A stretch of DNA of 64,000 nucleotides. It comes from Acidobacteriota bacterium (GTDB lineage: Bacteria; Acidobacteriota; UBA6911; RPQK01; JAJDTT01). Every line of letters begins with the position of its first letter. The first letter of the stretch is position 1. Position numbers and translations under genes: made by a program. The stretch spans positions 5,536,001-5,600,000 of the forward strand of contig OZ253580.1 of NCBI GenBank assembly GCA_965263035.1. The letters run 5' to 3'. Below are positions 892 through 57,358 of this stretch, one piece after another. Below the pieces are notes generated by a model. The model did not search any database. It saw only the letters and a list, made by a program, of their open reading frames with translations, and was not told where the DNA came from.

Positions 892-2887
892 GTGCGCCGT
901 GGAAAGGCGCTGTTTCTCAGTGGGTGCGAATCCCACCCGGCAACTGTCGCTCCAGCCGGTAGCAGTCGGAGCGGTTCATGGAGGCAACGATATGGACTGA
1001 AGCACTCCGATGTCAAAGGGTCGCTTTAGGCGACTCAGCGAGTCCGCAGGCCGCAACATGTGAACGCTGCGCAGGCCTCGAAACGGGTAATGCGGAAGCC
1101 GACCCGCCTGAGAAACGCACGAAGGCTGCCAGCGGTCGGGAAGCGAGCGACGCAAGCACCGACCGGTTCCGCCGGGGTATTGGCGGTGGCATGTGGACAA
1201 GAGGGAGACAGCAGCAACACGGGAAGCCCCGCCGGTGGCGTGGCACGCGTCAACCGGGAACCCGTGAGGGCCAGCCTGGGCCGTCGGGGTGGCGGAGAGG
1301 CCCGTAGTACTGGAGAAGCCGGGTAACGCCGGTGGAGGGAAGGGGCCTTGGTTCGAGAACCGCGTTGGACGGGGAAAAGGACGTGAAGACTGGTGAGAAC
1401 CTAGTAGCTTCAGAGAAAGTTCAGAGACTCCGGAAGACGCTCCATGCGAGCATCGAAGGAGGCTCCGGGCTTCCGGTTCTACTCGCTGTGCGACAAGGTG
1501 TGGCGGTTGGACGTGCTCCGTGTGGCCTGGCAGGAGGTCCGCCGCAACGGCGGGTCGGCCGGGGTGGACGGGGAGGCGATCGCCGACATCGAGTCGTCGG
1601 GGGTGGACGGGTGGCTCGGGGAACTGGCGCGGGACCTGAAGGAAGGGACCTACCGGCCCAACGCGGTGCGGCAGGTTCTGATCCCGAAGAAGCAACGCGG
1701 GAAGTTCCGGCCTTTGGGCATTCCGTGTGTGCGGGATCGGGTGGCGCAGACGGCGGCAATGTTGGTGTTGTCGCCGATCTTCGAAGCCGATCTGGCCCCG
1801 GAACAATATGCCTATCGGCCGGGCCGGAGCGCGGGCGATGCCGTCAAGCACGTGCACCGACTGCTGAACCGGGGCCACCGCGAGGTGGTGGACGCCGACC
1901 TGACGGACTACTTCGGCCAGATCCCCCATGCCCAACTGATCAAGTCCGTGGCCCGCCGCATCAGTGATGGGCGGGTGGTGGGTTGGATCAAGGCTTGGTT
2001 GGAGATGGCGGTGGAGGAAGAGGACGGCTGCGGCGGACGACGCCGAACGACCCGGGCGCGGCAAGAGAGGAAAGGGACCCCGCAAGGGGCGCCCATCTCA
2101 CCGCTGCTGAGCAACTTGTACATGCGACGCTTCATTCTGGGCTGGAAGGGACTGGGCTACGCTCGGCGCTTCAAGGCGGAAATCGTCAACTACGCAGACG
2201 ACTTTGTGGTCCTGGGCCAAGCTCCGGCCGCGATCATGCGGACGGCGGTCGAGGATCTGGTGAAGCGTCTGAAGCTGGCGTTGAACGCGGAGAAGACCCG
2301 AGAGGTGCGGGTGCCGGAGGAACCGCTGGAGTTCCTCGGCTACCGGATTGGGCGCAACTACCGCCGGGATACGGGGCGAGCCTACATTGGGACGCGCCCG
2401 AGCCCGGCGAGCGTTCAGAGCCTCTGCCGCAGGGTGAGCGCGTTGACCGAGAGACGCTATGGACTCCTGGAACCCGAGCGAGTCGTGGGACGCCTCAACC
2501 GGCTTCTGAACGGTTGGGCGAACTACTTCTCGTTGGGTCAGGTGAGTCCCGCTTATGCGACGATCGATCGGCACGCGACCCGGCGGCTGCGCCAGTGGCT
2601 GAGCCGCAAGCACAAGGTGAGGGCCGGGAAGACGGTGCGCTTCCCGGACAAGCGACTCTGGAAGGAGTGGGAGCTCACTCGTCTTGGTCCGCGAACGGCC
2701 AGCTTTCCGTGGGCGCGCGTATGATCTCGTCCGAGAGCCGGATGCGTTAGTAGCGCACGTCCGGTTCGATGAGCGGGGAGAGGAAACGGGGTCACGGTGG
2801 AGATTGAGGCACCGGCATGAGGGCGAAAGCCGCCGGCAACAGCGACTCCCTTCGACCTACGGCCGTCGCGCCTCTCCTCGACTCTAC
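892..2887 (+). mobile_element. Group II intron (bacterial, lacking the En domain; probably class E-like)
   Basis: 5' GTGCG at 892; domain V-like GAGAGCCGGATGCG..GCACGTCCGGTTCGATGAGCGGG at ~2733-2778; 3' end CGACTCTAC; EBS1 TGAGAAA (1109-1115) complementary to 5' exon TTTCTCA (885-891). Confidence 0.9.
1383..2724 (+). pseudogene. ltrA: Group II intron reverse transcriptase/maturase, frameshifted near the N-terminus (~1448)
   Basis: RPLGIP..DRV, GTPQGAPISPLLSN, YADDF and GWANYF motifs; N-terminal KVQRLRKTLHA lies in a different frame from SKEAPGFRFYSL. Confidence 0.85.
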
Positions 2888-11285: not shown

Positions 11286-11289
11286 TAAT

Positions 11290-16442: not shown

Positions 16443-16581
16443 ACGCGTGAGATTAGAGGGGGACGGCGGGAGAACGGGCCAGTCTCCTCCTCTTGTCCTT
16501 GCGGCTTTCCGGATGAGAACCAAGTAAAGGTCCGATACCGGCCGCGCGAGTTCCCAACGCCGCCGGGCTCTCCTGGATCGG

Positions 16582-19031: not shown

Positions 19032-19299
19032 AGGAATCTCCTTTGGCTCATAATGACCTTCAGCGTGCGGGGCGCGGACGTCCAAACTGACCAAGTGGAG
19101 TTCCCTGCGGCCGCCGCGGACCGCCAGCAGCCAGTGTATCAGGGGAAACGATAGGGGAAAGTCACCTTCTCTCGCCGGCGGCGCGGGGCGGTCCCAGGGA
19201 GAAGGGGATAGTGCGCCAGGTTCGCGAGCCGTGCGGGGGGAAACGGAGAAGGGGACAGTCACTTCCTCTCGGTCACCTCCTCTCGCGGGCCTGTTACGG

Positions 19300-19412
19300 G
19301 GTCTGGAAGAGAACAGCGACCGCCAGGAAATGGCCGACCTGATCACCTTCATCCTCAAGTATCAAACCGAGGTCGGCACGTAGAGCGGCGGCATCGGCTA
19401 TGGGGAGGACGT
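19300..19412 (+). pseudogene. Degenerate 3' fragment of the CxxCH gene
   Basis: GGTCTGGAAGAGAAC..ATGGCCGACCTGATC..CTCAAGTATCA..GGCATCGGCTATGGGGAGG matches ~578-688. Confidence 0.85.
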
Positions 19413-19430
19413 CTCTTTAGTTGAGTCTCG

Positions 19431-19852
19431 TCACTGCGGGACGGGAACCACCGGCAAAGTCGTGAAGATTCGGCTTCCGGCATCCAACTCCAGGGCGATC
19501 CCGGCGAACCGTTCCCCTTCAGGAGCGGTGCAACGAACCGATCCGACGAAGTCGGACGTATCGGTCTGGGTGAACAACTCGTGGATAAACTTGGCCGTCT
19601 GGCCGTTGCCGGCCAGTGGAATGTCCTTCGTCTCCAATTCCGCGCCTGCTTTCATCAATTGGCAACTCACGTCGATCGGATTCTCTCCCAGGTTCCGGAT
19701 CGCGGCTCCCGTGTTGATTCCGCCCTCTTGGCGGCGGGCCGGGAAAATGACGTCGTTTGCGGGCGCACTGACCCCCACGCCGGCCACGCCCAGGGACGGG
19801 GCATCGAACCGCAGGACCCCGCCGATGCGGGCTGCGCCGCCCGCGTCCTCCC
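19431..19852 (-). pseudogene. 3' fragment of the C-terminal-domain gene at 21340-22872
   Basis: Near-identical to ~21365-21768; its 5' break abuts the palindrome at 19857. Confidence 0.9.
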
Positions 19853-19915
19853 GAGAGAGAAAGGGACAGTCACCTCCTTGCGCCTCTTGTTATCATAATC
19901 TGATAACATCAATCG

Positions 19916-20287
19916 ATGACGACGCCGGACCGAGACCCGGGACTGGACACCCTGCTCGACCTTCACGGCGAGACGCTGTTTGTGGACGACACGGGGCATT
20001 GGGTGAAGTTCGTCGTAGTGCGGACCGAGGCGACGCCCGAACGACCGCACGCCCTCCGCTACTCGTTGACACTGCACGCGCCGGATGGCGCCAGATTGGT
20101 TGGATTCGATAATGCGCACCCGGTTAGGGAGCGGCCAGGCCCGGGCAGGCGGCGACGGACAGAGCGCGACCATCGGCATCGGCTGCGGAAGGTCCGGCCC
20201 TATGAGTACAGAGACGCAGTGACGCTCCTCGAGGATTTCTGGAAAGAAGTGGACCAAGTTCTTGAAGAAGGAGGCTCGATTCCATGA
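19916..20287 (+). CDS. DUF6516-like putative toxin
   Basis: RPHALRYSLTLH..RLVGFDNAH..DHRH..YEY..LLEDFW pattern; 4-bp overlap with the next gene. Confidence 0.75.
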   Translation: MTTPDRDPGLDTLLDLHGETLFVDDTGHWVKFVVVRTEATPERPHALRYSLTLHAPDGARLVGFDNAHPVRERPGPGRRRRTERDHRHRLRKVRPYEYRDAVTLLEDFWKEVDQVLEEGGSIP

Positions 20288-20652
20288 AGACACTAGAGAT
20301 CGGGATTGCCGGTTACGACCAGATGAAGGCGCGCACCCTGGCGATTGCCCGCGGGGAGCACACGCCCGCGAAAGGTGAGCCGAAGGTGTGGTTCACCTCG
20401 ATCGAGAGCTTTGCAAAGTTGCTCTCCGAGCACAACAGACATCTCCTGGAGCTGATTGCCCGAGAGAAACCGGGTTCGCTCACGGAGCTCGCGGAGATGG
20501 CCGGGCGAAGCAAGTCGAACCTCTCGCGAACCCTGAAGACGATGTCTAAATACGGGCTCGTGGAATTGCGACACGGAGAGCGTGGGAGGCTGGTACCGCG
20601 GGTGCCTTACGATCACGTGAGGCTCGATGTCTCGTTGACTTCAACGTGGTGA
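20284..20652 (+). CDS. MarR-type HTH putative antitoxin
   Basis: VWFTSIESFAKLLS, PGSLTELAEMAGRSKSNLSRTLKTM HTH; ATGA coupling to the upstream gene. Confidence 0.8.
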   Translation: MKTLEIGIAGYDQMKARTLAIARGEHTPAKGEPKVWFTSIESFAKLLSEHNRHLLELIAREKPGSLTELAEMAGRSKSNLSRTLKTMSKYGLVELRHGERGRLVPRVPYDHVRLDVSLTSTW

Positions 20653-20825
20653 AGCAGCGGTACACATAAGCCCCACAGAAGGTGGGCCGCCGGTCCCCGT
20701 CTCTCAGCCCGGAACAGCCCATCAATGGTACCGGGCAGTGATCCAGATCACCGCTCTCCAGCCGTGTCCATGCGAGAGTCAGGAGGGGGCCCTTCAGCCT
20801 CTCCGAAACTCCCGGAATCGGCGGT

Positions 20826-21116
20826 TCAAAATTCCCGCTCCTTTTTCTTGGAAGGGGTCTGAAGCCTCGCGACTCTCTCCAGGAACTCCCGGGCGACCCG
20901 TTCGTACCGGTCCCGATCCAGGTTCCAGGCCCTGCCGTGGCTGGCGCCGGGGACCGTCACGCACCGGACCAGATCGGATCGGGAATTCGCCAGCAGTTGG
21001 CTGGTTCGGAGCGGAACCAGGGTGTCCTCGCCGCCGTGGAAAACCAGCGTGGGCGCCTGCAAGTATTTCGTGTTCCCGACATAATTTAGTGCCTTCCAGG
21101 GGACTCCGAATCGAAC
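20826..21116 (-). pseudogene. Diverged 3' fragment of the alpha/beta-hydrolase at 60553-61710
   Basis: VRFGVPWKALNYVGNTKYLQAPTLVFHGGEDTLVPLRTSQLLA vs VRFGLPWTELNYVRETEHLQAPTLVFHGGADTLVPLRTSQLLA; its 5' break abuts the palindrome at 21119. Confidence 0.9.
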
Positions 21117-21159
21117 CGGAGAAGGGGACAGTCACCTCCTCTGAAGGGACCGGACGCGT

Positions 21160-21355
21160 GCTGAGGGATGAAGCGGGCACCGGCGTGACCCTGGTGGAGG
21201 GCGACGACCTCCGGAATACCCTGTTGCAGGAGAACATCCGTGAAATCCGGGCCACGACCAACTCCCTCATGCCCGAGGGTCTGGAGGAGAACATCGACCA
21301 CCAGGAGATGGCCGACCTTATCTCCTTCATCCTCAAGTATCAGTACGAGGTCGGT
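21160..21355 (+). pseudogene. Third 3' fragment of the CxxCH gene
   Basis: LRDEAGTGVTLVEGDDLRNTLL..SLMPEGLEENIDHQEMADLISFILKYQYEVG; begins ~18 bp after the palindrome ending at 21142. Confidence 0.9.
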
Positions 21356-22872
21356 ACCGGAATCACCGGCAAAGTCGTGAAGATTCGGCTATCGGCATCC
21401 ATCTCCAGGGCGACCCCGGTGAACCGTTCCCCTTCAGGAGCGGTGCAACGAACGGACCCGACGAAGTCGGACGTATCGGTCTGGGTGAACAACTCGTGGA
21501 TGAACTTGGCCGTCTGTCCGTTGCCGGCCAGTGGAATGTCCTTCGTCTCCAATACCGCGCCTGCTTTCATCAATTGGCAACTCACTTCGATCGGATTCTC
21601 TCCCAGGTTCCGGATCGCGGCTCCGGTGTTGATTCCACCCTCTTGGCGGCGGGCCGGAAAAATGACGTCGTTTCCGGGCGCACTTGCCCCCACGCCGGCC
21701 ACGCCCAGGGACGGGGCGTCGAACCGCAGGACCCCGCCGATGCGGGCCGCGCCGCCCGCGTCCTCCCGGTTTTTGTCGCCCGCGAGATTAAAGCGCACAA
21801 TGTCGGAGAACACCGTTACCGATCCGGTCACCAACTCCCCTCGCCCATGGGTCGAAATCACCAGTTCACCCAGAGGTTCAATCCCCGTCCGGACAGTCAA
21901 CGCTCCGTCCTCCCGGACTTCCAGATCTTCCGTCACGTCCACCACCGATTCGGGGTCGATGAGTGCGCCCATTTGATCGTAGAAGTAGATGGCCGAGTAA
22001 GTCGCCGAGGGCTCCACGTTCACCAACACCAAGTCCGAGGTGATGGACCCTCCATTCCCGAAATGCGCAAAGCTCAGAGACTGTCGCAGGTCCGCCGTGA
22101 TTGGAAGCATGGCGTTGTCCGATTGAACCTGGAGAAGTCGGTCGAAGTAAGCGATCCGATTCGGCATAGTCTCCAATATTGTCCGCTCGTAAGGTCGGGA
22201 GATTCGAGCCGAACGATATCGGACAGCCAAGTACGCCAGGAACGACTCGGTGATGTCTTCTCGCTCCGGATGATCTCGTGCGTAGTCGGAAATGAAGTTG
22301 CCATCGGCTGTCTGGGCGGCACGCCAATCGACGGCGTTGACAATCCCCATCCAGGGTGGGTCCAGGGAAGTGTGCGCCCCCTCGTGGACCAATTCCTCCT
22401 CCAAAAAACCCTTGGCGATGGACTCTTCCGCATGATCTGCATGAATGAGAATATTGTTGTTTCCACCCCCGAGAGGCTGATTCCCTTTATGGATCCAGAC
22501 CGTCTTGACATTGGTTCGAAGAAGGGTTGGCAATTGGCCGATGAATCCCCCATATTTGCTAGCCTCCGCCATCGCGGCCGATGCACTGCCGAACTCTGGA
22601 TTGACCTGAATCTCCGCAGTCAGCCCATCATCAAATCGGGCCATGAACAAATAGGCGTTGACCACGATCCAGTCCTTGACCCGCTGGTCGAACATCGTCC
22701 GTTGCCCCCGTCCGGCTTCCGTCACACTCACGAGCGCAGTCGGATCTGATAGCGTGATGATGTCCGGGTCGATCCAGACGGTGCCCGAATAGGGTGGATC
22801 GGTCTGGTCCTTGCTCTGAACCTCTCGGCCGAGCGTGGCCAGCAGGAATACAGCTAGCATTATGTGCCTCAT
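21340..22872 (-). CDS. Secreted zincin-like (HExxH) protein with one copy of the shared C-terminal domain
   Basis: Signal peptide; EEELVHEGAHTSLD and YARDHPEREDITESF; C-terminal LSFAHFGNG..ITSDLVLVN..IFTTLPV; stop codon supplied by the antisense CxxCH fragment. Confidence 0.65.
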   Translation of the reverse strand: MRHIMLAVFLLATLGREVQSKDQTDPPYSGTVWIDPDIITLSDPTALVSVTEAGRGQRTMFDQRVKDWIVVNAYLFMARFDDGLTAEIQVNPEFGSASAAMAEASKYGGFIGQLPTLLRTNVKTVWIHKGNQPLGGGNNNILIHADHAEESIAKGFLEEELVHEGAHTSLDPPWMGIVNAVDWRAAQTADGNFISDYARDHPEREDITESFLAYLAVRYRSARISRPYERTILETMPNRIAYFDRLLQVQSDNAMLPITADLRQSLSFAHFGNGGSITSDLVLVNVEPSATYSAIYFYDQMGALIDPESVVDVTEDLEVREDGALTVRTGIEPLGELVISTHGRGELVTGSVTVFSDIVRFNLAGDKNREDAGGAARIGGVLRFDAPSLGVAGVGASAPGNDVIFPARRQEGGINTGAAIRNLGENPIEVSCQLMKAGAVLETKDIPLAGNGQTAKFIHELFTQTDTSDFVGSVRCTAPEGERFTGVALEMDADSRIFTTLPVIPVPTSY

Positions 22873-22944
22873 GGACGAAGGATAGTCGCGGAGGAGGGGG
22901 ACGTAGTCGCGGAGGAGGGGACAGTCACCTTCTCGCGCGGTGTC

Positions 22945-25828: not shown

Positions 25829-28800
25829 TTACTCCTGAGAGATTGTGGTTTGAATCGGCACGACCGGCAGAGTGGTGAAGATCCGGTTGCCGGTATCCAG
25901 CTCAACCGCGACTCCCGTGAACGTGCCTTCCCCGGCCGCCGTGCATCTCACCGACCCGACGAAGTCTCTGGTATCCGTCCTGGTGAACACCTCTTCGATG
26001 AACCGGGCATGCTGTCCTTGTCCGTTGAGATGGATGTCCACCTCTTCCAGCGCTTCGCCCCCGCTCATCAACCGGCACCGCACCGTTGCGCGCTGCGCCG
26101 CCAGGTTGCGGATCGCCGCAGCGGTGCGAATCCCTCCTGCTTGCCGCCGGGCCGGGAACAGCGCGTCCGCCGTGGCTTGACTCGCGCCCACGCCGGCCAC
26201 GCCGACGCCTGGGATGTCAAAGCGCAGGACGCCGCCGATAGGTCCGTTCGCCACGACTCGGACGGACCCGGTCACCACCTCTCCCCGGCCGTGGGTCGAG
26301 ATCGTCAGCTCGCCCAGACGAGCCATGGCCGTTCGTAGGGTCAGGCCTCCGTCCTCTCGAACGACCAGATCCTCCCCCACGTCCACCGTTGATTCCGGCT
26401 CCAGCAGCTCTCCGCGCTGATCGTAAAAGTAGATGGCCGGCCGGGCCGTTGAGGCCGCCACGTTCACCAGCACCAGGTCGGACGTAATCAAGGTCCCGTC
26501 GCCGGAAGTGCCATTGGCGAAGTGCGCGAAAGTCAGGGTCGTTTCTTCCTCTTCGCCACCCCCAGGATCCACCGGCACCACCGGCAGGGTGGTGAAGATC
26601 CGGTTGTCCGCATCCAACTCCACCGCCACGCCCGTGAACGACTCGCCGCGCGGGACCGTACAGCGCACCGAACCGACGAAGTCCGTGGTGTCGGTCGCGG
26701 TGAACAGTTCCTCGATGAACTGGGCGTCCTGACCGTTGGCGTCCAGTTCGATCGCTCTTTCTTCCAGGACGGCGCCGTTTTTCATCAACCGGCACTGGAC
26801 GTCGACGGCCTCCATCCCCAAGTTGTGGATGGCCGCCGCGGTGCGGATCCCTCCTGCCTGACGCCGCGCCGGGAACAGGGCGTCCCCCGTGGGTTCGCTG
26901 GCTCCGACCCCGGCCACGCCGATCCCGGGGATGTCGAAGCGCACCACGCCGCCGATGGGACCGTCCGACACGACCCGCACCGATCCGGTCACCACCTCTC
27001 CCCGGCCATGGGTCGAGATCGTCAGCTCGCCCAGCGACGCGATCTCCGTCCGGGGCGACAGCCCTCCGTCCTCCCGGATCTCCAGATCGTCCCCGACATC
27101 CACCACGGACTCGGCTTCAAACAGATCTCCCTCCCGGTCGAAGAAGTAGACGGCGGGACGAATCTCCGACTCGGCGACGTTCACCAGCACCAGGTCGGAG
27201 GTAATGAGAACGTCGTTGCCCGAATACCCGTTGCCGAAATGGGCGAACTCCAGGATCACCTCCTCCGCCATGGGCGTGGCCTCGACCGGGCTGGAGGGGG
27301 GACTCTGGCCGACTTCGTTCACCGCCCGCACCTCGAAGACGTAGGTCCGGCCGTTGGTCAGTCCGATGACCGTATAGGTCAGGTCCGTGGAACCGATGGA
27401 GGTCCAGTCCCCGGGCCGGTCGATCCGGACCTGGTAGCCGGTGAGGGCGGAGCGACCGTCGCTCTCGGGCACCTCCCAGGTCAGCGTCACTTCACCGTCC
27501 CCGGCTTCTGCCTGCAGGTTCAACGGTGCCGTGGGTACCGTCGCAGCCGGCGGCGGCGGAGGAGGAGGCGGCGGCGGCGGAGGAGGAGGCGGCGGCGGCG
27601 GAGGAGGAGGCGGCGGCGGCGGTGGTGGTGGCGGGGCCGAGACTTCGTTGTCCAGGACCGTCACGCGAGCGCTCTGAGTCGAAGCGGAACCCAGCCGGTA
27701 CTCGGCTCCCGGCCGCAGCCGGGCGGTGACCCGGCTGGTGGATTCGGCGACGTCGTCATCGTCGGTCAACACCTCCAACGTCGCCGTGTCCTGTCCGGTC
27801 CGGAACTCCACCTCGTCCGGCGGTTCGTACCCGTCCGAGGTCTTGATCATCGATCCCGTCTCCGTGACCTCCAGGCTCACCGTCAGCGCGGCCTCCGTCG
27901 GAGGCCCCCGCGTCAGGGTGAACTCCACGGTGGCGCCTTCCGTGACCGTCTCGGATCCCTGCTTGGCTTCGATGGTGACCAGTGGCGGGTCCGCCCGTTG
28001 ATCGGTCAACGCCTCCACCGCGTTACCCACCTCGTCCTGGATCGGGTCGAACCTGGGTGTATAGCTCACTCTTACCGTCTCGCCCGCCGCCACCGGAGAG
28101 GTCAGCGTCAAGGTGACGCTGTTTCCTCTCACCTGGACCTGGATGACCGTCCGGTCATTCCCCTCCACCGTCACCGCGAAGTCGTCCCTGGCCGGCCTCG
28201 AGTCCTCATCCAACGCCTCGTCGTAGGTCAGCGCCACCCGCAAGCCATGCACCGTCACGGTCTGCAGTCCCGGCACGCTCGCGTCCACCTTTTGGTTCGC
28301 CTGCGCCTCCACCGCCTCGTAGCTCCGTGCCGCCGGGTTGTCCGCCAGATCCAGGATCTTCCCCCCATTGAGCGCGATGCTCCCCCGCGGCACGCTCACG
28401 CCGTCCTCGTCCTCGTCCCCCTTCTCCACCGTGTAGACGAACACCACTGCGGCCCGCGCCGACCCCACACTGGCGCTGGCCCGCTTCCTCTGGTTCCCCA
28501 CCAGCAGGTCCAGCGTCGGCGTCCCCTGCACCGTGTCAACCGTCACCGTCTCGTCGTAGCGCACCGTCACGGAGATCATGTCGTCGACCGCGTAGGTCTC
28601 GTCCGTCCCCGGGTCCGAGCTGATCTCGATCCCTTCGATCGATGGGGCCGTCGTGTCCGGCGTCCGGTTGTCTACGAACTCGTCCCGGAAGGCCTCGGCA
28701 TCGTTGCCGATCGCGTCCTGGATCGGATTCGACCGCGACTCGTAGCTCACCCGGATGTCCGTCTCTCCGTACTCCGCCGCTGGACTCACCGTCAGCCGAA

Positions 28801-31800
28801 CCTCACTCTCGGTCACCTGAACCCGGGTCACCGTGCGCGTCTCGTTGCCCCCGGCCAGGGTGAAGTCGCTGGTCGCCGGCCGCGAAGAGGTGTTGAGCGG
28901 TTCGTTGTAGGTCAGCGTCAGCGTCGTTCCGTTCACCACCGCCGGGTCGGTCACGGCCAGGGCCGGGGCCACCGCGTCCACCTTGTGGCTTGAGCTGGCC
29001 GCCACGGCCGTATGGTCCAAGGTGGCGTCATTGCCCGCCCCGTCCCGGATCGTCCCTCTGGCTCGCGACAGGCGGTTCTCCTCGATACTCACACCGTCCT
29101 CGTCGACGTCGTCCGTCACCACCCGATAGGTGAACTTCACCGCCCGGTTCGTGACGCTCTGGTACTCCGCCGTCCGGTTCCGGCCGCCCACATTCAGCGT
29201 CACTTCGGGCGTCCCCGTCACCACCACCGTCTCGTCGAACGTCACCGTCACCTCGATGGTCTCGTCCACGCCGTAGGTCCGATCCGACCCCGCACTGGAC
29301 GTGATCCGAACCGTCTCCACCACCGGCTCCGTCGTGTCTCCCGTCTTGTTCGTGACCGGTTGGTTGTTCAACTCATCCGCGGCGTTGCCCACCAAGTCCC
29401 GGATTGGATTCGACCCCGGCTGGTAGCTCAACCGGAGGCCGCTCTCTGTGGCCGTGACGGCCGAACTCAGCGTCAGGAAAACGGCACTCCCGTCGACCCG
29501 AACTGCCCTGACCGTCCGCGTCTTGCTCCCTCCCGTCACGGTGAAGTCGTCCGTCGACGGTCTCGAAGAGGAATCCAGCGGCTCGCCGTAGGCCAGCGTC
29601 AGCGTCGTCCCGTTCACGACTGTCCCGTCGGACGTCGCCAGCACCGGCTTGACCCCATCCACCTTGTGGCTCGAATCGGCCGCCACCGGCGCGTGGTTCA
29701 GCACGGCGTTATTCTGGGCGCCGTCGCGGATCGTGCCGCTGGACAGGCGGTTCGCCTCGATCCTCACCCCGTACGGGGCCGCGTCGCCCGAGACCACTTT
29801 GTATTCGAACCTCACGGCCGCCCCCGTGACGTCCTGGTAGTTGGCCGTTCGGCTCCGGCCGCCCACGTTCAGCGTCAACCGCGGGGTCCCCGTCACCACC
29901 ACCGTCTCGTCAAACGTCACCGTGACCTCGATGAGATCATCCACCGCGTAGGTCTGATCCGACCCCGCATTGGAGGTGATCCGAACCGTCTTCACCACCG
30001 GCTCCGTCGTGTCTCCCGTCTTGTTCGTGACCGGTTGGTTGTTCAACTCATCCGCGGCGTTGCCCACCAAGTCCCGGATTGGATTCGACCCCGGCTGGTA
30101 GCTCAACCGGAGGCCGCTCTCTGTGTCTTGCACCGCCGGGCTCAAGGTCAGGAAAACGGCGTTTCCGCTCACCTGGACTCGGGTCACCGTCCGTGTCTCA
30201 CTGCCCCCGGTCACCGAGAAGGCGCTCGCCGCCGGTCTCGAGGAGGAGTTCAGTGGCTCGCTGTAGGCCAGCGTCAGCGTCGTTCCGGTCGCCACCGCCC
30301 CGTCGGGCAGCGCCAGCGCCGGCGGAATCCCGTCCACCTTGTGGCTCGAATCGGCCGCCACCGCCGCGTGGTCCAAGGTCGCGTTATTCCGGGCCCCGTC
30401 CCGGATCGCCCCACCGCCTCGCGACAGGCTGTCGGCCTCGAGGCTCACGCCGTCCCGGTCGCGGTCGCCCCGGGCGACCCTATACTCGAACTTGACGGCG
30501 GAGCCCGCAACGCTTACGTATTCCGCCGTTCGATTCCGGCCACCCACGTTCAGCGTCAACTGCGGGGTCCCCGTCACCACCACCGTCTCGTCGAACATCA
30601 CCGTCGCTTCGATGGGAGCTTCCACCGCGTAGGTTCCATCCGAACCCGCATTCGAGGTGATCCTCACCATCTCGACCGCCGGCCCCGTCGTGTCGCCTGT
30701 GTTGTTGGTGACGCTCTTGTTGCTCAACCGATCCGCGTCGTTGCCCGCCGTGTCCTGAATCGGACTCTCTCCCATCTCGGTCGGTACCGTGTAGTTCACC
30801 CGAAGGCCCGTTTCCCCGTGCTCCACCGGTGGATCCAGGGTCAACTCCACCGCGCTCCCACTCACCCGCACCCCGGTGACCGTGCGCGTCTGGTTGCCCC
30901 CCGTCACCGTGAAGGCGCCCGTCGGCGGCACTGAGAACCGGTCCAGCTCCTCGCTGTAGGCCAGCGTCAGCGTCGCCCCGTTCACCACCGCAGAAGAAAA
31001 CGCCGGCGCCGTATCGTCCACATCCTGAAGCCGGACGATGAAGTCCGCCTCCACGGGATTGAACCCGTCGGTGACCTGCACCCTGATTTCGTAGTCCCCG
31101 TCCCGATTGGCGTCGTCCGGACTCTCGTAGTCCTTCGCCGTCTTGAACGCGAGTTCGCCGTCGGACGTCAGCGTGAACTTGCTCCGGTCCGCGCCTCCCG
31201 CCAGCTCCCACTCCAGATCTTCTACCCGGCCATCCGCGTCCGTGGCCGCCAGCGTCTCCACCTCCGTCTCGTTCTCCGCCACCAGAAGCGGAGGGGTCGT
31301 CGTAATTTCCGGTGCGAAGTCGTCATCGGTAATGGTGACCGTCTGCTGCGTGCCCACGGCCTCACGATTGTGAGTCGCCGTGATCAGGATCTCTTCATCG
31401 TTTTCGACGAGTTCGTCCTCCACCGCGGTGAGGGTGGTCGTCACCGAACTTCCACCCAGCGTGAGGGTGAGCCGCTCCGTTCCCACCGTGTAGTCCGTAT
31501 CCTTCGCCGCAGTCCCTGCCCAGGACAGTCGGATCTCCTGATCCGCTGCGAAGGTGACACCGTTGGTGATTCTCACCGTCACCGTCGAGGTCCCCGCCGC
31601 CTCCACCATCGTCGACGGACCGACCTCCAGGGTCATCACCGGCTCATCGTCATCGTCGGTGACTGTCAGCGTCTTCTCGGACGGACCCGTCACCCCATGG
31701 TCGTTGCTGGCCCTCCCCGATACCCGAACCGTCCGGTCCGGCGCGTCCACATCGTTATCGTTGGCGCTGATCGTCACCGTCCCGATGCTGTCCGTCTCTC

Positions 31801-34800
31801 CCGCCAGAATGATCAGGTCCCGGTTCGTGCTCAGCCTGAAATCCTCCTCTGCCGCCGGACTCACCGGCGTCGCCGAGACCGTCACCGTCGTCCTCTCACC
31901 CGAGGCCCGGCTCAGACTTGCCGTCACCGTGCTCGACTCCCCGTTCTCACCGATCGAGTCTGGCGACAACTCCAGCGTCACCGCGGGCGTTCCATCGTCA
32001 TCCCTGATCGTCAGCGTCACGCCGGACGGACCCGTCACGCCCTGGTCGTTGGTCGACGTCCCGGACACCTGCACCGTCTTGTCGGGGGCGTCCACATCGT
32101 TGTTGTTGGCGCTGATCGTCACCGTCCCGGTGCTGCGTGTCTGACCTGCCTCGATCGTCAGCATCTGGTTGGTGCTGACCGTGAAGTCCTCCGCCACCGC
32201 CGGACTCACCGGCGTCGCCGAGACCGTCACCGTCGTCGGCTCACTCGACACCCGGTCCAACCGCGCCGTCACCGTGCTCGACCCTCCGTTTTCACTGATC
32301 GAATACGATGTCAGCAACCAGGTCACCGTCGGGGCCGGCTCCGCCGGCTCCTCCATGAACGCCGCCGCCCCGTTGCCCACCTTGTCCTGAATCGGATTGA
32401 ACCCCGGCGTATAGGTCACCGTCACCGCTTCGCCCGCCGCCACCGGCGAGGCCAGCCGTAGCGTGACCTTCTTTCCACTCACTTGGACCTGGATCACCGC
32501 ACGATCATTCCCCGCCACCGCCACCGTGAAGTCGGACCCCAAAGGCACCGAGCCCTCATCCAGCGCCTCGTCGTAGGTCAACGTCACCCGCGACTCATGC
32601 ACCGTCACGCTCTCCCGCTCCGGCTCCACGCCGTCCACCCGGTGGCCCGCCTGCGCCGGCAATGCTTCATAACTCCGCGCCGCCAGATTGCCCGCCGAGT
32701 CCTCGATCCTGCCCCCGTTCAAGTCGATCCGGTCGGCAGCAATGCTCACCCCGTCCGGGTCCAGGTCCCCTTTCTCCACCGTGTAGACGAACACCACCGT
32801 CGCCGATTCCGGACCGGCGCCGGCCCGGGCCGCCTTCCGCCGATTGCCCACCGTCAGATCCAGCGTCGGCGTCCCCTGCGTGGTGACCACCCTCACCGGC
32901 TCGTCGTAGCGCACCGTCACCTCGATCGCGTCCCCGGCCGCGTAGGTCTGGTCGGTCCCCGGGTTCGAGCTGAGCTCGATCTCTTCCAACGCCGGCGCGG
33001 TCGTGTCCGGCGTCCGGTTGTCCACCCCCTGGTCCGTGAACGCCCCGGCGTCGTTGCCTGCCACGTCCTGGATCGGATTCGACCCCGGCTGGTAGCTCAC
33101 CCGGATCCCCGTCTCTTCGTGCTCCGCCGCCGGATTCACCGTCAGCTCCACCGCGCTCCCGCTCACCTGCACCCCGGTCACCGTTCGCGTCGCATTCCCG
33201 CCCGTCACCGTGTAGGCGCTCGGCGCCGGCCTCGACGACCCGTTCAACGGCTCGTCATAGGTCAGCGTCAGCGTCGATCCGTTCATCGTCGCCCTGTCCA
33301 TAGGGGCCAGACCCGGAGCCACGCCGTCCACCTTGTGCTCCGAATCGTCCCCGACCGCCGCGTGGTCCAGGATCGCGTTATTGCTGGCCCCGTCCCGGAT
33401 CGACCCGGTGCCCCGCGACAGGCGGTTCGCCTCGATGCTCACTCCGTCCGGGTCGTTGTCGCCGACCCCCACTGCGTATCCGAACCTTACGGCGGCCCCG
33501 GTGACGCTTTGGTACTCCGCCGTTCGATCCCCGCCGCCGACGTTCAAGATCAACCGGGGCGTCCCCGTCACCACGACCGTCTCGTCGAAGGTTACGGTCA
33601 CCTCGATCGTCTCCCCGGCCGCGTAAGTCTGATCCGACTCTGCATTCGAGGTGATCCTCACCATCTCGACCGCCGGCCCCGTCATATCTCCTGTCTGGTT
33701 GGTGACCTGCCGGTTGCTCAGGCTGTCCGCGTCGTTGCCGGCCGTGTCCTGAATCGGACTCTCTCCCATCTCGGTCGGTACCGTGTAGGTCACCCGCAGC
33801 CCCGTCTCCCCGTGCTCCACCGGTGGAGCCAGGGTCAACTCCACCGCGCTCCCACTCACCCGCACCCCGGTGACCGTGCGCGTCTGGTTGCCCCCCGTCA
33901 CCGTGAACGCATCGTTCGGTGGCATCGAAGACTCGTCCAACGCCTCGCTGTAGGCCAGCGTCAGCGTCGCCCCGTTCGCCACCGCAGAAGAAAACGTCGG
34001 TGCCGTATCGTCCACATCCTGAAGCCGGACGATAAAGTCCGCCTCCACGGGATTGAACCCGTCGGTGACTCGCACCCTGATTTCGTAGTCCCCGTCCCGA
34101 TTGGCGTCGTCCGGACTCTCGTAGTCCTTCGCCGTCTTGAACGCGAGTTCGCCGTCGGACGTCAGCGTGAACTTGCTCCCGTCCGCGCCGCCTGCGATCT
34201 CCCACTCCAGGTCCGCCACCGCTCCATCCTCGTCCCTCGCTGCCAACGTCGCCACCTCGGTCTCGTTCTCCGCCACCAGAAGTGGGGAGTCCGTCGTGAT
34301 CACTGGGGCGGCATCGTCATCGGTGATCGTGATCGTCTGCTGCGTGCCGACGGCGTTACGATTATGGGTGGCGGTGATCAGGACCGTCTCGTCGACGTCG
34401 ATGAGACGGTCGTTCACAGCAGTGACGGGGGTCGTCACCGAGTCGTCGCCCGCCATGAGGTTGAGCCTCTCGGAGTCCACCGTATAGTCCGTGTCCTTCT
34501 CCGCCGTCCCCGAGAAAGACAGCCGGATCTCCTGAGCCTCCGCGAAGGTCACTCCGTTCGTGATCCTCACCGTCACTGTCGAGCTCCCGGCCGCCTCCGC
34601 GATCACCGCCGGACTGACCTCCAGGGTCATCACCGGAGCCGCATCGTCGTCCGTGATGGTGAGCGTCACATCGGAAGGATCCGTCACCCCCTGACTATTG
34701 TTGGCGGAACCGGACACCCGCACCGTCTTGCCGGGCGCATCCACGTCGTTGTTGTTGGCTCTGATCGTCACCGTCCCCGTGCTGGTGGTCCGGCCCGCCG

Positions 34801-37800
34801 TGATGGTCAGCGTCTGGTTCCCGCTCAGGGTGAAGTCCCCCGACATGGCCGGGGAGACGGCCGTCGCCGACACCGTCACCGTCGTCGTCTCACTCGACGC
34901 ACGGTTCAGCTCCGCCGTCACGGTCGTCGACCCGCTGTTCTCGCTGATGGAGGCCGGCGACAACTCGAGCGTCACCGTCGGAGCGGTGTCCTCATCGGTG
35001 ATGGTGAGCGTCACATCGTCTGGGTCCGTCACCCCCTGGCTGTTGCTGGCGGAACCGGACACCCGCACCGTCTTGTCGGGTGCGTCCACCTCGTTGTTGT
35101 TGGCTCTGATCGTCACCGTCCCCGTGCTGGTGGTCCGGCCCGCCGTGATGGTCAGCGTCTGGTTCGCGCTCAGCATGAAGTCCCCCTCTACAGTCGGGGA
35201 GACGGCCGTGGCCGACACCGTCACCGTCGTCACCACACTCGATGACCGGTTCAGCTTCGCCCGGACGGTAGTGGATCCTCGATTCTCGCCGATGAAGGTC
35301 GGCGATAGCTGGAGCGTCACCGTCGGAGCTCCGTCCTCATCCGTGATGGTCAGGGTCACATCGTCTGGGTCGATCACTCCCTGACTGTTGCTGGCGGAGC
35401 CCGATACCCGAACCGTCTTGTTCGGTGTGTCCACGTCGTTGTCGTTGGCGCTGATCGACACCGTCCCCGTGCTGGCGGTCTGGCCCGCCGTGATGGTCAG
35501 CGTCCGGTTCGCACTCAGCGTGAAGTCCCTCGACACCGCCGGGGAGACGGCCGTCGCCGACACCGTCACCGTCGTCGCCACACTCGATGCGCGGTCCAAC
35601 CGCGCCGTCACGGTCGTGGACCCTCCGTTCTCGCTGATCGAATCTGCCGACAGCTCCAGCGTCACCGTCGGAGCGGTATCGTCATCGGTGATCGTGAGCG
35701 TCACGTCGGCCGGGTCCGTCACCCCCTGGTTGTTGCTGGCGGAGCCCGATACCCGAACCGTCTTGTTCGGTGTGTCCACGTCGTTGTCGTTGGCGCTGAT
35801 CGACACCGTCCCCGTGCTGGCGGTCCGGCCCGCCGTGATGGTCAGCGTCCGGTTCGCACTCAGCGTGAAGTCCCTCGACACCGCCGGGGAGACGGCCGTC
35901 GCCGACACCGTCACCGTCGTCGCCACACTCGATGCGCGGTCCAACCGCGCCGTCACGGTCGTGGACCTTCCGTTCTCGCTGATCGAATCTGCCGACAGCT
36001 CGAGCGTCACCGTCGGAGCGGTATCGTCATCGGTGATCGTGAGCGTCACGTCGGCCGGGTCCGTCACCCCCTGGTTGTTGCTGGCCGTCCCCGATACCCG
36101 CACCGTCTTGTCGGGTGCGTCCACGTCGTTGTTGTTGGCTCTGATCGTCACCGTCCCCGTGCTGGTGGTCCGGCCCGCCGTGATGGTCAGCGTCTGGTTC
36201 GCGCTCAGCATGAAGTCCCCCGACACGGCCGGGGAGGTGGCCATGGCCGACACCGCTACCGTCGTCGTCTCGCTCGACACACGGTCCAGCTTCGCCCGGA
36301 CGGTGGTGGATCCTCGATTCTCGCCGATGGAGGTCGGCGACAACTCGAGCGTCACCGTCGGAGCAGGGTCGTCATCGGTGATGGTCAGGTTCACGTCGGC
36401 CGGACCCATCACCCCCTGGCTGTTGCGGGCCAATCCCGACACCCGCACCGTCTTGTTGGGCGTGTCCGCGTCGTTGTTTTTGGCGCTGATCGACACCGTC
36501 CCCGTGCTGGCGGTCTGGCCCGCCGTGATGGTCAGCGTCCGGTTCGCACTCAGCGTGAAGTCCCTCGACACCGCCGGGGAGACGGCCGTCGCCGACACCG
36601 TCACCGTCGTCGCCACACTCGATGCGCGGTTCAGCCGCGCCGTCACGGTCGTGGACCCTCCGTTCTCGCTGATGGAGGTCGGCGACAACTCAAGCGTCAC
36701 CGTCGGGGCGGGCTCGTCATCCACGATCGTCAGCGTGACGTCGGCCGGGTCCGTCACCCCTTGGCTGTTGCTGGCGGAGCCCGACACTCGCACCATCTTG
36801 TTGGGTGCGTCCACATTGTTGTTTCTGGCGGTGATGGCCACCGTCCCCGTGCTGGTGGCCTGACCGGCGGTGATCGTTAGCGTCTGGTTCGCGCTCAGCA
36901 TGAAGTCCCCCGGCACGGCCGGGGAGACGGCCATGGCCGACACCGTCACCGTCGTCGTCTCGCTCGACGTATGGCTCAATGTCGCCATCACCATGGCGGA
37001 CCCGCTGTTCTCGCTGATGAAGGCCGGCGACAACTCGAACATCACCGTGGGCATGGCGCCCGGCATCGGCACGGCCACGGAAACCCGCGGACTGCGGCTC
37101 CCTTCGCCGCCATTGATCACGGCCGCCACCTGATAGACGTAGGTGGCGCCGGCAGTCACGTCGGTGTCGACGTAGGTGCGATTTCCGGTGTTCTCAGCGA
37201 GGATCTCGACGGTGGTTCCGGCAGTGCGGTAGAGGTTGTAGGTCCCACCGGAGATTGCGGACCAGGTCAGCGTCACCTGGCCCACCGTGGGTGTCGCCAT
37301 CAGGTTCGGGCCGGCGCGAACCTGATGGCCGAACTCCTGCCAGGTCGCCCCGCCGCCCCCATTCGTGTCCACCGAAAGGACCGGGTACTGGCCCGACGTC
37401 CCGAAGTCCCAGGGATCGTCGTTCATGCCGTCGCCGTTCAGATCCACGTTCCAGGTCAAATAGATGTCGCCGGCGGACGTGGGCAACTGCAACTCCGCCG
37501 TGGTCTTTGCTTGGCCGTTGGAGCCGCTGGTGCGTCCCGACGTGTCGGAATCCCAATAGCTGGCGGTGATGGCGCCGCCGCCGGTGTTCCGGCCGACCAG
37601 GCCACCGATTGTGCTGCGGCCCGAGACGAGACCGGTCGCATAGCTGATGTCGACGTCACCGGTGTTCCGGCCGATCAATCCTCCGGCCTCGTAATCCCCC
37701 ACGATTCGGCCCGTCGCGTATGCGGCCCTCACCTCGCCGCTGTTGGACCCGGCGAGGCCGCCGATGCGGTCGTCTCCCGTCACGTGGACGGTGGAGTAAC

Positions 37801-57131: not shown

Positions 57132-57358
57132 TGAAATCGGCTCGCCATTCCCAGAAGTCACCAAAACGCCCACTGAGTCGAACGCACCGAAGGGCCATGA
57201 TCGAATGAGCTCCCCGCACACTCCAATGCATCCCGGAACGTTTGAGTCGTGCACCGATGGCGCTAAGGATGTACGCTCTCATCCGGCATATCTTTAGACT
57301 CTTACCAGGCAGGGGGCTCCGAGCTGATGTGCGCTGTCTCTCCACATGGTGAGTTCCG

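Follow-up and report, generated by a model that had tools for sequence, protein, structure and literature searches.

The window analysed here, a 64-kb stretch of an Acidobacteriota assembly (contig OZ253580.1, positions 5,536,001 to 5,600,000), contains a 10.7-kb array (12265-22935) with 13 copies of a short repeat, in the same orientation throughout. The repeat unit, GGAGAAGGGGACAGTCACCTCCTCT, is a 26-nt near-palindrome with 11-bp arms, one mismatch and a central A, and the gene fragments of the window end 1-30 nt from its copies. At up to three mismatches the window has 11 matches, all on the + strand, compared with none in 100 shuffles; outside the array no motif was found in the 64 kb at up to seven mismatches, except for a chance-like seven-mismatch match at 34997. 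The array lies to the right of the 3' part of a CxxCH gene and of an 11.5-kb pile of mobile DNA:

3-758, +: 3' part of a full-length CxxCH gene, putatively heme-binding (Cytochrom_C; TIGR02603, 94.8 bits against a cut-off of 68)
764-12264: mobile-DNA pile, 11.5 kb, missing from relatives
~764-2887: group II intron
2887-4882: insertion sequence (IS) with 14-bp TIRs
from 4889: second IS
7161-8824: third IS
10087-11028, -: methyltransferase
11290-12264, +: Xer-like tyrosine recombinase, clipped by the motif
12265-12289, +: motif, one mismatch, with a left half-motif stutter immediately upstream
13103-13127, +: motif
13977-14001, +: motif
14166-14307, +: three motif copies (14166, 14235, 14283)
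16469-16493, +: motif, three mismatches
16541-17889, -: GFO/IDH/MocA oxidoreductase module
17931-17955, +: motif
19148-19286, +: a degenerate motif at 19148, a left half-motif at 19198, the full motif at 19245-19269 and a duplicate of the right half-motif at 19272-19286
19856-19880, +: motif, four mismatches, accompanying the TumE/TumA module in relatives
19916-20287, +: TumE-like toxin (PF20126, 37.3 bits against a cut-off of 23.4)
20284-20652, +: HVO_A0114-type HTH antitoxin (PF25212, 75.2 bits against a cut-off of 27.6)
21118-21142, +: exact motif copy, between two gene relics (hydrolase and CxxCH)
22911-22935, +: final motif of the array; the 3' end of a TonB-dependent receptor gene follows 10 nt later

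The insert 764-12290 is accompanied by a target duplication of 481 bp. Its recombinase falls below the NCBIfam cut-offs for XerC/XerD and for the integron integrase (TIGR02249, 53 bits against 265). The homologues are mostly ~327 aa long, and all nine that were fetched (320-328 aa) terminate in ...NLVERISV or a closely similar sequence (e.g. ...NIVERISV). In the window the match ends after ...NLVE and the reading frame continues through the motif to 12480, so that the four conserved last codons were lost because of the motif joint. A smaller truncation is found after the motif at 14235, where the oxidoreductase module breaks off at the next motif after ~23 nt; the stretch 14200-14273 is 96% identical to that of a relative.

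Gene fragments and their joints with the motif

The preliminary description of this region reported gene fragments that break at the palindrome. All four classes of fragments are present where it placed them, 1-30 nt from the motif. The fragments and their parents on the right are:

12291-12766, +: recent duplicate, 3'-terminal 476 bp of the CxxCH gene (97.3% to 283-758 over the full 476 bp)
19299-19414, +: relic of the last ~116 bp of the CxxCH gene (88% to 578-693)
19431-19853, -: geneX 3' fragment of 417 bp with the native stop codon at 19431-19433 (19437-19853, 94.7% to 21352-21768)
20862-21116, -: diverged hydrolase 3' relic (20862/20877-21116; 83% over 240 bp to 60571-60810 in the best local alignment)
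21156-21371, +: ~216-bp relic from the 3' region of the CxxCH gene, in fusion with the 3' end of geneX (90-91% to 457-660)
21340-22872, -: geneX, full length, 510 aa, no Pfam family
60553-62115, -: alpha/beta hydrolase, full length, parent of the relic

The CxxCH gene at 3-758 is the parent of three of the fragments. It had been regarded as a flank of 19246-21770; it is not an immediate neighbour of that segment and flanks the whole array on the left. The 476-bp duplicate, which lies outside that segment, begins 2 nt past the motif at 12265-12289, so that the codon for the first Cys of CxxCH is cut, and matches its parent at 98% in the two sub-regions that were compared. The DNA downstream of the first copy has nothing in common with this duplicate past +5 nt, so that a plain tandem duplication would require a later replacement by the mobile-DNA pile. 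The 116-bp relic starts 30 nt past the 25-mer at 19245-19269 and 12 nt past the right half-motif at 19272-19286; it has a stop codon at 19381-19383, and the native intergenic DNA and the geneX 3' end are still attached. CBDCJH010000002.1 has the same joint (92% identity, with 5 nt in front of the motif included), and the relic groups with the fragment of that relative (92%). Since the joint is common to another species, it is old. The 216-bp relic starts 8-14 nt past the motif at 21118-21142, and its fusion to geneX has removed ~60 bp of intergenic DNA together with both native stop codons. This relic is an outgroup to all full-length copies, as is the hydrolase piece. These placements and the orthologous joint of the 116-bp relic show that not all events were recent or local. 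The last ~50 nt of the parent CxxCH gene still align with the antisense geneX 3' end, which supports an ancestral adjacency of the two genes.

The pieces of the right-hand genes end at the other edge of the motif: the geneX fragment stops 2-3 nt short of the copy at 19856 and the hydrolase relic 1-2 nt short of the copy at 21118. The C-terminal domain of geneX is related to the ends of giant genes downstream. Over its full ~255 bp, the hydrolase relic is 79.5% identical to the hydrolase of the window and 82.6% to that of a relative; the divergence is 5% between the two geneX copies and 20% between the hydrolase relic and its parent. The 39.4 kb that separate the relic from the full gene (21117-60552) are flanked by a 258-bp duplication. 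In CBDCJH010000002.1 the full hydrolase is the right-hand neighbour of the array, which identifies the piece as a relic of that adjacency; the capture from ~40 kb away that had been proposed is not needed.

Within the limits of approximate BLAST end points, three of the five fragment joints in the window lie within 3 nt of a motif edge and all five within 30 nt; for comparison, motif edges ±3 nt take up 0.16% of the window (1% of the array) and edges ±30 nt take up 1.2% (7%). The variable ends have no short consensus and no motif-like sequence is present at the cut positions in the parent genes.

The motif in relatives and at other loci

Sampling of ±5 kb around motif matches, and thus of loci selected for carrying the motif, gave 152 copies (up to five mismatches) in 529 kb, with none in shuffled sequence. 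These copies occur in 43 stretches, with the window counted alongside 42 merged loci, and seven Acidobacteriota MAG assemblies supply nearly all of them. Motifs are co-oriented at 32 of the 33 multi-copy loci, and their orientation has no link to the local GC skew (20 loci against 19). Comparison of 118 unique sequence contexts limits the conservation to ~26 nt, and as a single strand the motif forms a weak hairpin (-3.5 kcal/mol, z = 0.5). None of 150 copies represents a clean motif-only presence/absence difference; the segments on either side are always unrelated.

In three relatives the same array again follows the CxxCH gene immediately, and its modules differ. The oxidoreductase and TumE/A modules are each kept as a motif-bounded block in three relatives, the former with two copies in one of them, and a methyltransferase module is found in three separate motif loci of one genome. 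The motif bounds swappable gene modules in an uncultured group of soil Acidobacteriota; the enzyme acting on it is putative.

The two edges of the motif differ in their joints. At all 21 joints of the motif with a downstream segment whose homologue continues motif-free, the junction lies 25-31 nt from the motif start, and joints at the right edge are nucleotide-sharp. Homology to the right begins sharply at motif position 1 or 26-32, whereas homology to the left fades diffusely between -15 and 0. Of 72 intralocus duplicates in six other assemblies, 25 have one end no more than 15 nt away from a motif, which bears out the prediction that other motif clusters carry fragments of neighbouring genes; 26 of the 47 duplicates that do not end at a motif are internal repeats of two repeat-protein genes. 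One recent case (98.4% identity) consists of a motif and the first ~400 bp of a gene, cut by the next motif, beside a motif with the full gene. Retention of 3' ends is not a general rule: only the part beyond the motif is missing, as illustrated by the clipped recombinase of the window, a recombinase 5' relic in another locus (L043) and a histidine-kinase 5' piece in a relative.

Motif-ended inserts at other loci often carry flanking direct target duplications of 160-600 bp. Duplications of at least 100 bp accompany 14 of 21 motif-ended inserts, compared with 6 of 22 inserts of other kinds (p = 0.015, Fisher test; the events are not independent); as an internal control, bona fide IS elements gave overlaps of 6-12 bp in the same comparison. 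The sharp joints recur in seven assemblies, the modules turn over between species and the events differ in age.

Origin of the fragments

These observations are best explained if the fragments are scars that motif-anchored duplications and deletions have left in a cassette-like array, a reading to which we assign a probability of roughly 0.7. The array would sit between an anciently convergent pair, CxxCH (+) and geneX (-), with the hydrolase farther to the right, and would consist of gene-sized modules with co-oriented 26-nt near-palindromes between them. Each event would have one end exactly at a motif edge and the other at an arbitrary point within a neighbouring gene, in line with the hotspot of recurrent events with variable cuts in neighbouring genes that the preliminary description proposed, the other end being fixed at the motif. 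Two types of duplication are envisaged: i) from a point inside the left gene to the right motif edge, leaving an intact gene and, farther on, a motif joined to a 3' piece, which would account for the three CxxCH pieces; and ii) from the left motif edge to a point inside the right gene, leaving a piece joined to a motif and, farther on, the intact gene, which would account for the 417-bp geneX and 255-bp hydrolase pieces. The same product might arise by an alternative route, in which homologous (Campbell-type) recombination reinserts a motif-closed circle; flanking duplications of 116-600 bp would be compatible with this route. The copies may later have been blurred by gain and loss of modules and by erosion beside the motifs, and the exact history of events cannot be reconstructed. 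Rather than towards a passive hotspot, we lean towards a dedicated, putative enzyme, encoded elsewhere, that would cut or recombine at the motif, mainly at its right edge near positions 26-28.

The preliminary description favoured one-ended or rolling-circle transposition (IS91/ISCR/Helitron-like, HUH), with the motif as the fixed origin end, replication over a variable distance and reinsertion of the copy at the hotspot. A sharp fixed end paired with a variable one is indeed observed, the motif copies are co-oriented and partial copies begin at the motif and end ~100-600 bp on; IS91/ISCR elements likewise combine a constant end with a variable far end and pick up pieces of adjacent genes. However, a scan of 233 ORFs of 44 motif loci and of the window genes detected no Y1/Y2 HUH transposase, and, unlike in IS91/ISCR, we found no Rep-like transposase or ori/ter pair, no target tetranucleotide is conserved at the 21 joints and both motif edges form joints. 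The hairpin is weak, and 19270-19855 is a single contiguous genomic stretch already bounded by an older event. This model appears quite unlikely. We regard as somewhat unlikely a passive hotspot, in which the motif serves the host as a REP-like element or protein-binding site (e.g. a polar replication barrier or portable homology) and breaks are mended by illegitimate or short-homology recombination without dedicated mobile machinery. REP sites are known as join points of duplications, and REP/BIME sequences with RAYT are also short imperfect palindromes repeated, sometimes in clusters, in the intergenic DNA of one lineage. A double-stranded palindrome would suit a dimeric binding protein, a barrier acting on one side would be in keeping with the polarity of the joints, and no enzyme was seen near any locus: the same scan detected neither a serine recombinase nor an intact tyrosine recombinase linked to the motif. 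On the other hand, the motif sequence is kept across species while its flanks turn over, it always separates unrelated segments, the same modules recur at different loci and its orientation is independent of GC skew. In contrast to REP/BIME, it lacks a GTAG/CGTC tag, is co-oriented and not arranged in inverted doublets, folds weakly, has no RAYT gene in any fetched locus and marks module boundaries instead of stable 3' UTRs.

An integron-like system, in which a tyrosine recombinase encoded elsewhere swaps cassettes of a module and a motif by crossover at the right motif edge and produces fragments via secondary sites in genes, is unlikely. The array resembles integron arrays and CALINs in its co-oriented short repeats between gene-sized modules, many with toxin-antitoxin pairs, and in the varying content among close relatives, including at orthologous positions; the loci share modules, and the common sharp boundary at positions 26-28 is approached from both sides. 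Yet the site measures 26 nt as opposed to 55-140 nt in attC, has no R''/R' boxes by inspection and no stable single-strand fold; no IntI-type integrase was found, and the sole nearby recombinase is Xer-like, motif-clipped and missing from the arrays of relatives. Unlike in integrons, modules occur in both orientations and include large genes, inserts have long target duplications, and insertion at secondary sites would split genes and not duplicate their ends. Serial integration of self-contained islands, each with its own integrase and a replacement CxxCH 3' end, in tandem accretion at the 3' end of the gene, is improbable. Displaced 3' ends behind targeted genes are known from rhs/cdi orphan C-terminal modules and from islands that replace the 3' end of their target (e.g. 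e14 at icd), which share with our array an intact gene with older, diverging 3'-end copies at a distance and a target end duplicated on insertion. The 11.5-kb insert with a tyrosine recombinase at its right end, beside a 476-bp direct repeat, would agree with such accretion, and the divergence of the displaced ends rises with distance, though not strictly (98% at 12291, 88% at 19299, 91% at 21156). Nevertheless, this recombinase lacks its conserved last four codons at the motif joint, tblastn and Pfam searches detected no integrase or relic in the other modules of the window or in 42 of 43 other loci, and the geneX and hydrolase pieces cut at the left motif edge are left unexplained. The pieces also differ from those systems in starting at a 26-nt repeat and in affecting genes on both sides, and the CxxCH protein is not a polymorphic toxin. 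Misjoining of contigs at a short repeat is hardly credible: the repeats are short, but like joints are found in genomes that were assembled independently, of which four are deposited as single-chromosome records, and a window joint is orthologous in CBDCJH010000002.1 at 92% identity.

Neisserial dRS3/NIME are short repeats with inverted termini, clustered at variable loci and tied to rearrangement break points and the insertion of foreign DNA. Although sequence and lineage are unrelated, and neither an IS110/Piv-type recombinase nor a filamentous prophage was detected here, the motif array resembles them in its clustering of a short repeat at rearrangement points.

The 26-nt motif and its array

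The window has a G+C content of 63.7%. The 25-mer GGAGAAGGGGACAGTCACCTCCTCT has 11 matches with at most 3 mismatches in it, every one on the + strand and within 12265-22935, compared with 0 matches in 100 shuffled versions. At up to 7 mismatches, two further degenerate copies are found at 19148 and 19856, and nothing convincing is present elsewhere in the 64 kb outside the array. The resulting 13 co-oriented copies are interspersed with gene-sized modules over 10.7 kb.

Features of the array and its surroundings, in left-to-right order
3..758 (+), CxxCH gene, putatively heme-binding; leftmost, before the array
~764-2887, group II intron (RF02003, 92.6 bits), starting 5 nt past the CxxCH stop codon
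left of the array, three IS elements, then a methyltransferase, then an Xer-like tyrosine recombinase (11290 onward)
12265-22935 (+), the array, as defined by its motif copies
module 1, unannotated 272-aa ORF
module 2, transglycosylase-only piece of a penicillin-binding protein (PBP) and a 356-aa ORF
module 3, GFO/IDH/MocA oxidoreductase
module 4, weakly TPR-like gene
module 5, pieces of the CxxCH gene (116 bp) and of geneX (417 bp)
module 6, TumE/HVO_A0114 toxin-antitoxin pair, then a hydrolase relic
module 7, 216-bp CxxCH piece fused to full-length geneX, a 510-aa gene at 21340..22872 (-)
past the last motif (22911), TonB-dependent receptor, then giant genes of up to 6634 aa
60553..62115 (-), full-length alpha/beta hydrolase

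The group II intron, with its reverse transcriptase and maturase ORF at 1444..2724, was the only element returned by an Rfam scan of 1-26000. An IS with perfect 14-bp TIRs (2887-4882) is inserted precisely at its 3' end and is flanked by CTCTAC on both sides. Module 2 (14439-16442) consists of a 305-aa ORF with only the transglycosylase domain of a PBP1C-like protein, followed by the 356-aa ORF without a family, and the pair may be a split or truncated PBP. The TumE and HVO_A0114 genes (19916-20652) are adjacent with a 4-nt overlap and belong to the TumE/TumA toxin-antitoxin class (PF20126, 37.3 bits against a cut-off of 23.4; PF25212, 75.2 against 27.6). Right after the TumA stop codon, 20676-20707 may be what is left of a motif copy interrupted by an insertion (CAGAAGGTGGGCC...GTCCCCGTCTCTC), at a position where relatives carry the motif. 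A lenient Pfam scan of the unannotated array ORFs gave no nuclease-like match. The giant genes to the right are all on the - strand (25829..45733, 6634 aa; 48208..54147, 1979 aa; 54144..57254, 1036 aa). Stretches of 380-690 bp in 25857-27224 and 46303-47699 have 63-72% identity to the 3' domain of geneX, which is thus a shared C-terminal module.

By scanning a genome contig collection with a 19-base motif pattern, we obtained 63 motif loci, merged into 42, almost all of them from seven MAG assemblies of Acidobacteriota; they occupy many places along the chromosomes and are found on either strand. The 529 kb of DNA fetched around the matches (about 5 kb on each side) contains 152 copies with at most 5 mismatches versus 0 in shuffled sequence; counts per assembly range from 10 to 56 for the fetched parts only, and a single JAPOYZ contig has 2. 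The copies are co-oriented in 32 of the 33 multi-copy loci. Replication-strand bias does not explain this orientation, as the sign of GC skew on the motif strand is divided 20 versus 19 among loci. In a comparison of 118 unique sequence contexts, conservation is confined to about 26 nt (consensus gGAGAAGGGGACAGTCACCTTCTCTC), which form two 11-bp arms with one mismatch and a central A; the flanks are not conserved. The single-stranded fold of the window copies is weak (-3.5 kcal/mol, z = 0.5 versus shuffles), and the window's variant of the motif has an unpaired A.C without a compensating change; judged by sequence, the motif therefore looks more like a double-stranded protein-binding palindrome than a structured hairpin. 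Derivation from the end of a local IS was rejected, since the window ISs lack similar TIRs.

Displaced gene fragments in the window and its relatives

Five pieces of three genes were mapped beside motif copies.

Gene fragments and their joints with the motif
12291-12766, copy of the CxxCH 3' end (283-758, 476 bp), 97.3% identity by self-comparison; begins 2 nt past the motif at 12265
19299-19414, 116-bp CxxCH piece, 88% identity; preceded by the motif copy at 19245, whose right half is duplicated
19437-19853, 3' 417 bp of geneX, 94.7% identity; ends 2-3 nt short of the motif at 19856
20862-21116, 3' ~255 bp of the hydrolase, 83% identity; ends 1-2 nt short of the motif at 21118
21156-21371, 216-bp CxxCH piece, 90-91% identity; begins 8-14 nt past the motif at 21118

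The preliminary description had reported that gene fragments break at the palindrome. This is confirmed and chance is excluded, because the translations run in frame to recognisable protein ends and no more than 1% of the array lies within ±3 nt of a motif edge. No sequence common to the cut positions in the parent genes was found; a match of the hydrolase parent to the motif left arm at ~7 of 10 bases was treated as chance. At its junction with the 216-bp CxxCH piece (21340-21380), ~60 bp of spacer and the native stop codon of full-length geneX are missing, so that the gene ends ...PVIPVPTSY* within antisense CxxCH sequence; the truncated copy retains the native ...PVVPVPQ* end (19431-19470). 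Retro-copying of mRNA 3' ends was rejected, as 19270-19855 contains convergent 3' ends of both strands with their native spacer, and 5' fragments occur as well.

In three relatives with ~90-93% identity (CBDCJH010000002.1, OZ246889.1 and CATOST010000025.1) the array lies directly behind the same CxxCH gene, and the 11.5-kb pile of mobile DNA is missing from all of them. Module content differs among the relatives; the oxidoreductase and TumE/TumA modules are kept as blocks starting 1-2 nt past the motif, the former in two copies in CBDCJH01. On the left, this genome has a motif, then the 116-bp CxxCH piece with its native spacer, geneX in full, the 5' part of a histidine-kinase gene and another motif, and further right the oxidoreductase, a motif and, after ~1 kb, the full hydrolase. 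The hydrolase is thus the right-hand neighbour of the array in CBDCJH01, and this adjacency explains the relic in the window; no capture from 40 kb away is needed to account for it. The 39.4 kb separating relic and full gene in the window appear as an 'insert' bracketed by a 258-bp duplication.

Identities between copies and parents range from ~98% down to ~80%, pointing to events of several ages. The 476-bp CxxCH copy is recent (98% pairwise identity). The closest match of the 116-bp piece is the corresponding fragment in the relative (92%) rather than any full-length gene (84-89%), and its joint with the motif is orthologous in the window and CBDCJH01, including 5 nt upstream of the motif. 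By pairwise identities, both the hydrolase relic and the 216-bp piece fall outside every full-length copy, as outgroups. An alignment with the antisense 3' end of geneX persists over the final ~50 nt of the parent CxxCH gene, from which we infer that these genes, with the array now between them, were once directly convergent.

Joints at other motif loci and comparison with known systems

Neighbour-gene fragments had also been expected at other motif clusters, and they occur there: 25 of 72 intralocus duplicates (at least 80 bp and 75% identity) in the motif loci of other genomes have an end within 15 nt of a motif, and 26 of the 47 non-motif duplicates are internal repeats of two repeat-protein genes. 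By a crude measure in which points are not independent, a motif is no more than 5 nt away for 7.3% of the 1691 end points of homology, versus 1.0% expected from coverage. We further compared sequence pairs to find DNA that only one of the two carries. Among motif-ended inserts, 14 of 21 have direct target duplications of at least 100 bp (range, 160-594 bp) at their sides, compared with 6 of 22 other inserts, several of these six in the same arrays (Fisher p = 0.015, on events that are not independent); genuine IS elements gave the expected overlaps of 6-12 bp in this comparison.

The joints are sharp on one side. All 21 joints for which a homologue continues motif-free lie 25-31 nt from the motif start, with no consensus in the parent sequences. 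Rightward homology starts sharply at motif position 1 or 26-32, whereas leftward homology ends diffusely between -15 and 0. This diffuseness is partly explained by polar stutter of left half-motifs, an extra one being found immediately upstream of 17 of 137 copies (control, 3/137); an extra right half-motif follows immediately downstream of 6 of 137 (control, 2/137). In a recent case at ~1.52 Mb of CBDCJH010000002.1, a 98.4%-identical pair comprises a motif followed by ~400 bp of a gene up to the next motif and, 4.3 kb on, a motif followed by the full gene.

The motif loci are rich in toxin-antitoxin pairs, in genes for Fic and Schlafen-like proteins and in metabolic genes of ordinary kinds; IS and TnpB elements are scattered among them. 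One methyltransferase module occurs in three different motif loci of a single genome (CATOST01), once inverted, at 87-91% identity. It is motif-bounded and encodes a 258-aa protein named from sequence as class-I methyltransferase-like (L008 3015-3791 (-), also L033, L035 and L004); the module recurs in other genomes. In CBDCJH010000001.1 (L011/L005, module 6111-8991 of the merged locus), a 783-aa protein with a DruA-like N-terminal domain and a Tn5-type DDE transposase is encoded on a 2465-bp insert, with ~8-9-bp overlap versus the empty site, inside a motif-bounded module. Orthologous hotspots in several assemblies (e.g. L003, L016, L011, L030, L038 and L026) share conserved flanks (AstE/AspA-like gene, 504-aa gene, Fic ... 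IscS/NifU) and hold different motif-bounded toxin-antitoxin and defence-like modules per species. A 400-bp piece from the 3' end of the 504-aa gene is found in CATOST010000018.1, 25-28 nt past a motif.

In arrangement, the closest working likeness is an integron cassette array or CALIN, with co-oriented sites between mobile cassettes. However, no IntI-type integrase lies beside the array, the nearest recombinase being XerC/XerD-like. An attC site has 55-140 nt with R''(RYYYAAC)...R'(GTTRRRY) boxes and folds as a single strand, whereas the motif has only 26 conserved nt, no GTT/AAC box by inspection and a weak fold. REP/REPIN sequences resemble it as short (20-40 nt), imperfect, multi-copy extragenic palindromes, and their associated Y1 (RAYT) transposase gene is usually REP-flanked; the motif differs in having no stable stem-loop and in being co-oriented rather than arranged in inverted doublets. 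REPs are described as having a GTAG or CGTC tag at one end (PMC3733652), whereas gGAGAAGGGGACAGTCACCTTCTCTC ends without either and CGTC is internal in some window copies only. One-fixed-end behaviour recalls IS91/ISCR. Rolling-circle elements of the IS91/ISCR/Helitron-like kind insert beside a conserved target tetranucleotide, but the 21 parents of motif/X joints have none, and no HUH Rep-type transposase is encoded in the fetched loci or the window. Xer/dif elements (IMEX, pdif) use a 28-bp site with an 11-6-11 layout and a conserved XerD arm; the motif has 11-1-11 symmetry, no ATAA...TTAT core and many dispersed loci per genome. A bare mobile MITE was rejected: none of 150 copies shows a clean motif-only presence/absence against any other fetched sequence, and no window IS has matching TIRs. 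The array thus fails the defining tests, among those run, of the integron, REP/RAYT, IS91/ISCR, dif and MITE families. Literature hits for the 12-nt motif core and its reverse complement concern, by their titles, unrelated uses such as primers, and listings and abstracts on Acidobacteria with REP/RAYT or integron/attC/CALIN mention no comparable repeat.

Enzyme candidates and possible mechanism

With the integron-integrase model TIGR02249 (cut-off, 265 bits), the recombinase at 11290 reaches 53 bits, and its best matches are XerC/XerD-like. Its family is very widespread (2028 matches, mostly ~327 aa among the matches listed). Nine fetched homologues have 320-328 aa and all end in ...NLVERISV or a close variant, e.g. 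...NIVERISV; the window protein lacks only its last 4 codons, lost at the motif joint. Its ORF (11290-12480) continues through the motif into the 476-bp CxxCH copy in another frame, giving a 396-aa fusion with a 71-residue foreign tail. The recombinase is absent from the relatives' arrays, and no full-length counterpart was found in the other fetched loci; being itself a victim of a motif joint, it is not regarded as the enzyme acting on the motif. A 250-nt 5' relic of a homologue with its upstream region (L043, CBDCJH010000001.1 20707-30730, ~4720-5024, reverse strand) stops ~30 nt short of a motif copy; a TnpB gene is located 2 kb from it, and a second TnpB lies ~350 nt from a motif in L034. 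Among 233 ORFs from 44 motif loci and the window genes there is no HUH transposase, serine recombinase, integron integrase or Y1 (RAYT) transposase.

All five fragments could be produced by one rule, in which a segment is duplicated with one end exactly at a motif edge and the other inside a neighbouring gene, leaving an intact gene and a piece on the far side of the motif. A left-hand gene on the + strand would leave its 3' end behind the motif (CxxCH, three times), a right-hand gene on the - strand its 3' end ahead of it (geneX, hydrolase), and a right-hand gene on the + strand a 5' end (as for the relative's kinase piece and the L043 relic of a recombinase). The prevalence of 3' ends is therefore a consequence of gene orientation. 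The interpretation in the preliminary description is partly supported: a recurrent hotspot with variable cut points holds, whereas capture from 40 kb away, a rule of 3' ends and rolling-circle machinery are not borne out by these data. Deletions from the motif edge would account for pieces without an intact partner nearby, such as the recombinase minus its last 4 codons.

Sharp, sequence-independent joints are to be expected from a site-specific enzyme that joins its specific site to a partner of any sequence, and likewise motif conservation amid flank turnover and co-orientation. We estimate at about 0.55 the probability that such a dedicated enzyme, encoded elsewhere, acts at the motif. The gene pieces left under the duplication rule could also arise from a motif-closed circle reintegrating by homologous recombination, and the duplication lengths of 116-600 bp, a range from which the 80-bp detection limit leaves out short ones, would fall within its working range. 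That the motif is a passive hotspot with no dedicated enzyme seems unlikely to us; it would then be a clear natural case in which segmental duplication and deletion are directed by a short palindrome of protein-binding type. With a dedicated enzyme, the motif would define a new site-specific system that can be tested with a 26-bp substrate. In either case, a large part of the structural differences among these genomes is accounted for by the motif at the loci studied.

We describe the structure as a repeat-bounded cassette array and recombination hotspot, with a real chance of representing a new system. In the window, a repeat specific to this lineage of large-genome soil bacteria is seen, which delimits modules at many hotspots and has nucleotide-sharp joints running into ordinary chromosomal genes. 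A more ambitious and doubtful proposal is that the palindrome is the recombination site of an undescribed Acidobacteriota-clade cassette system, which would build co-oriented arrays at many chromosomal hotspots with an enzyme encoded elsewhere. Such a system would parallel integrons in function while using an unrelated site, and could carve new modules from neighbouring chromosomal genes, and the window fragments would be snapshots of cassette genesis; the assembly of accessory-gene arrays and the origin of cassettes are open questions even for integrons. The fragments also resemble the displaced 3' ends behind rhs/cdi genes and islands that bring a replacement gene end.
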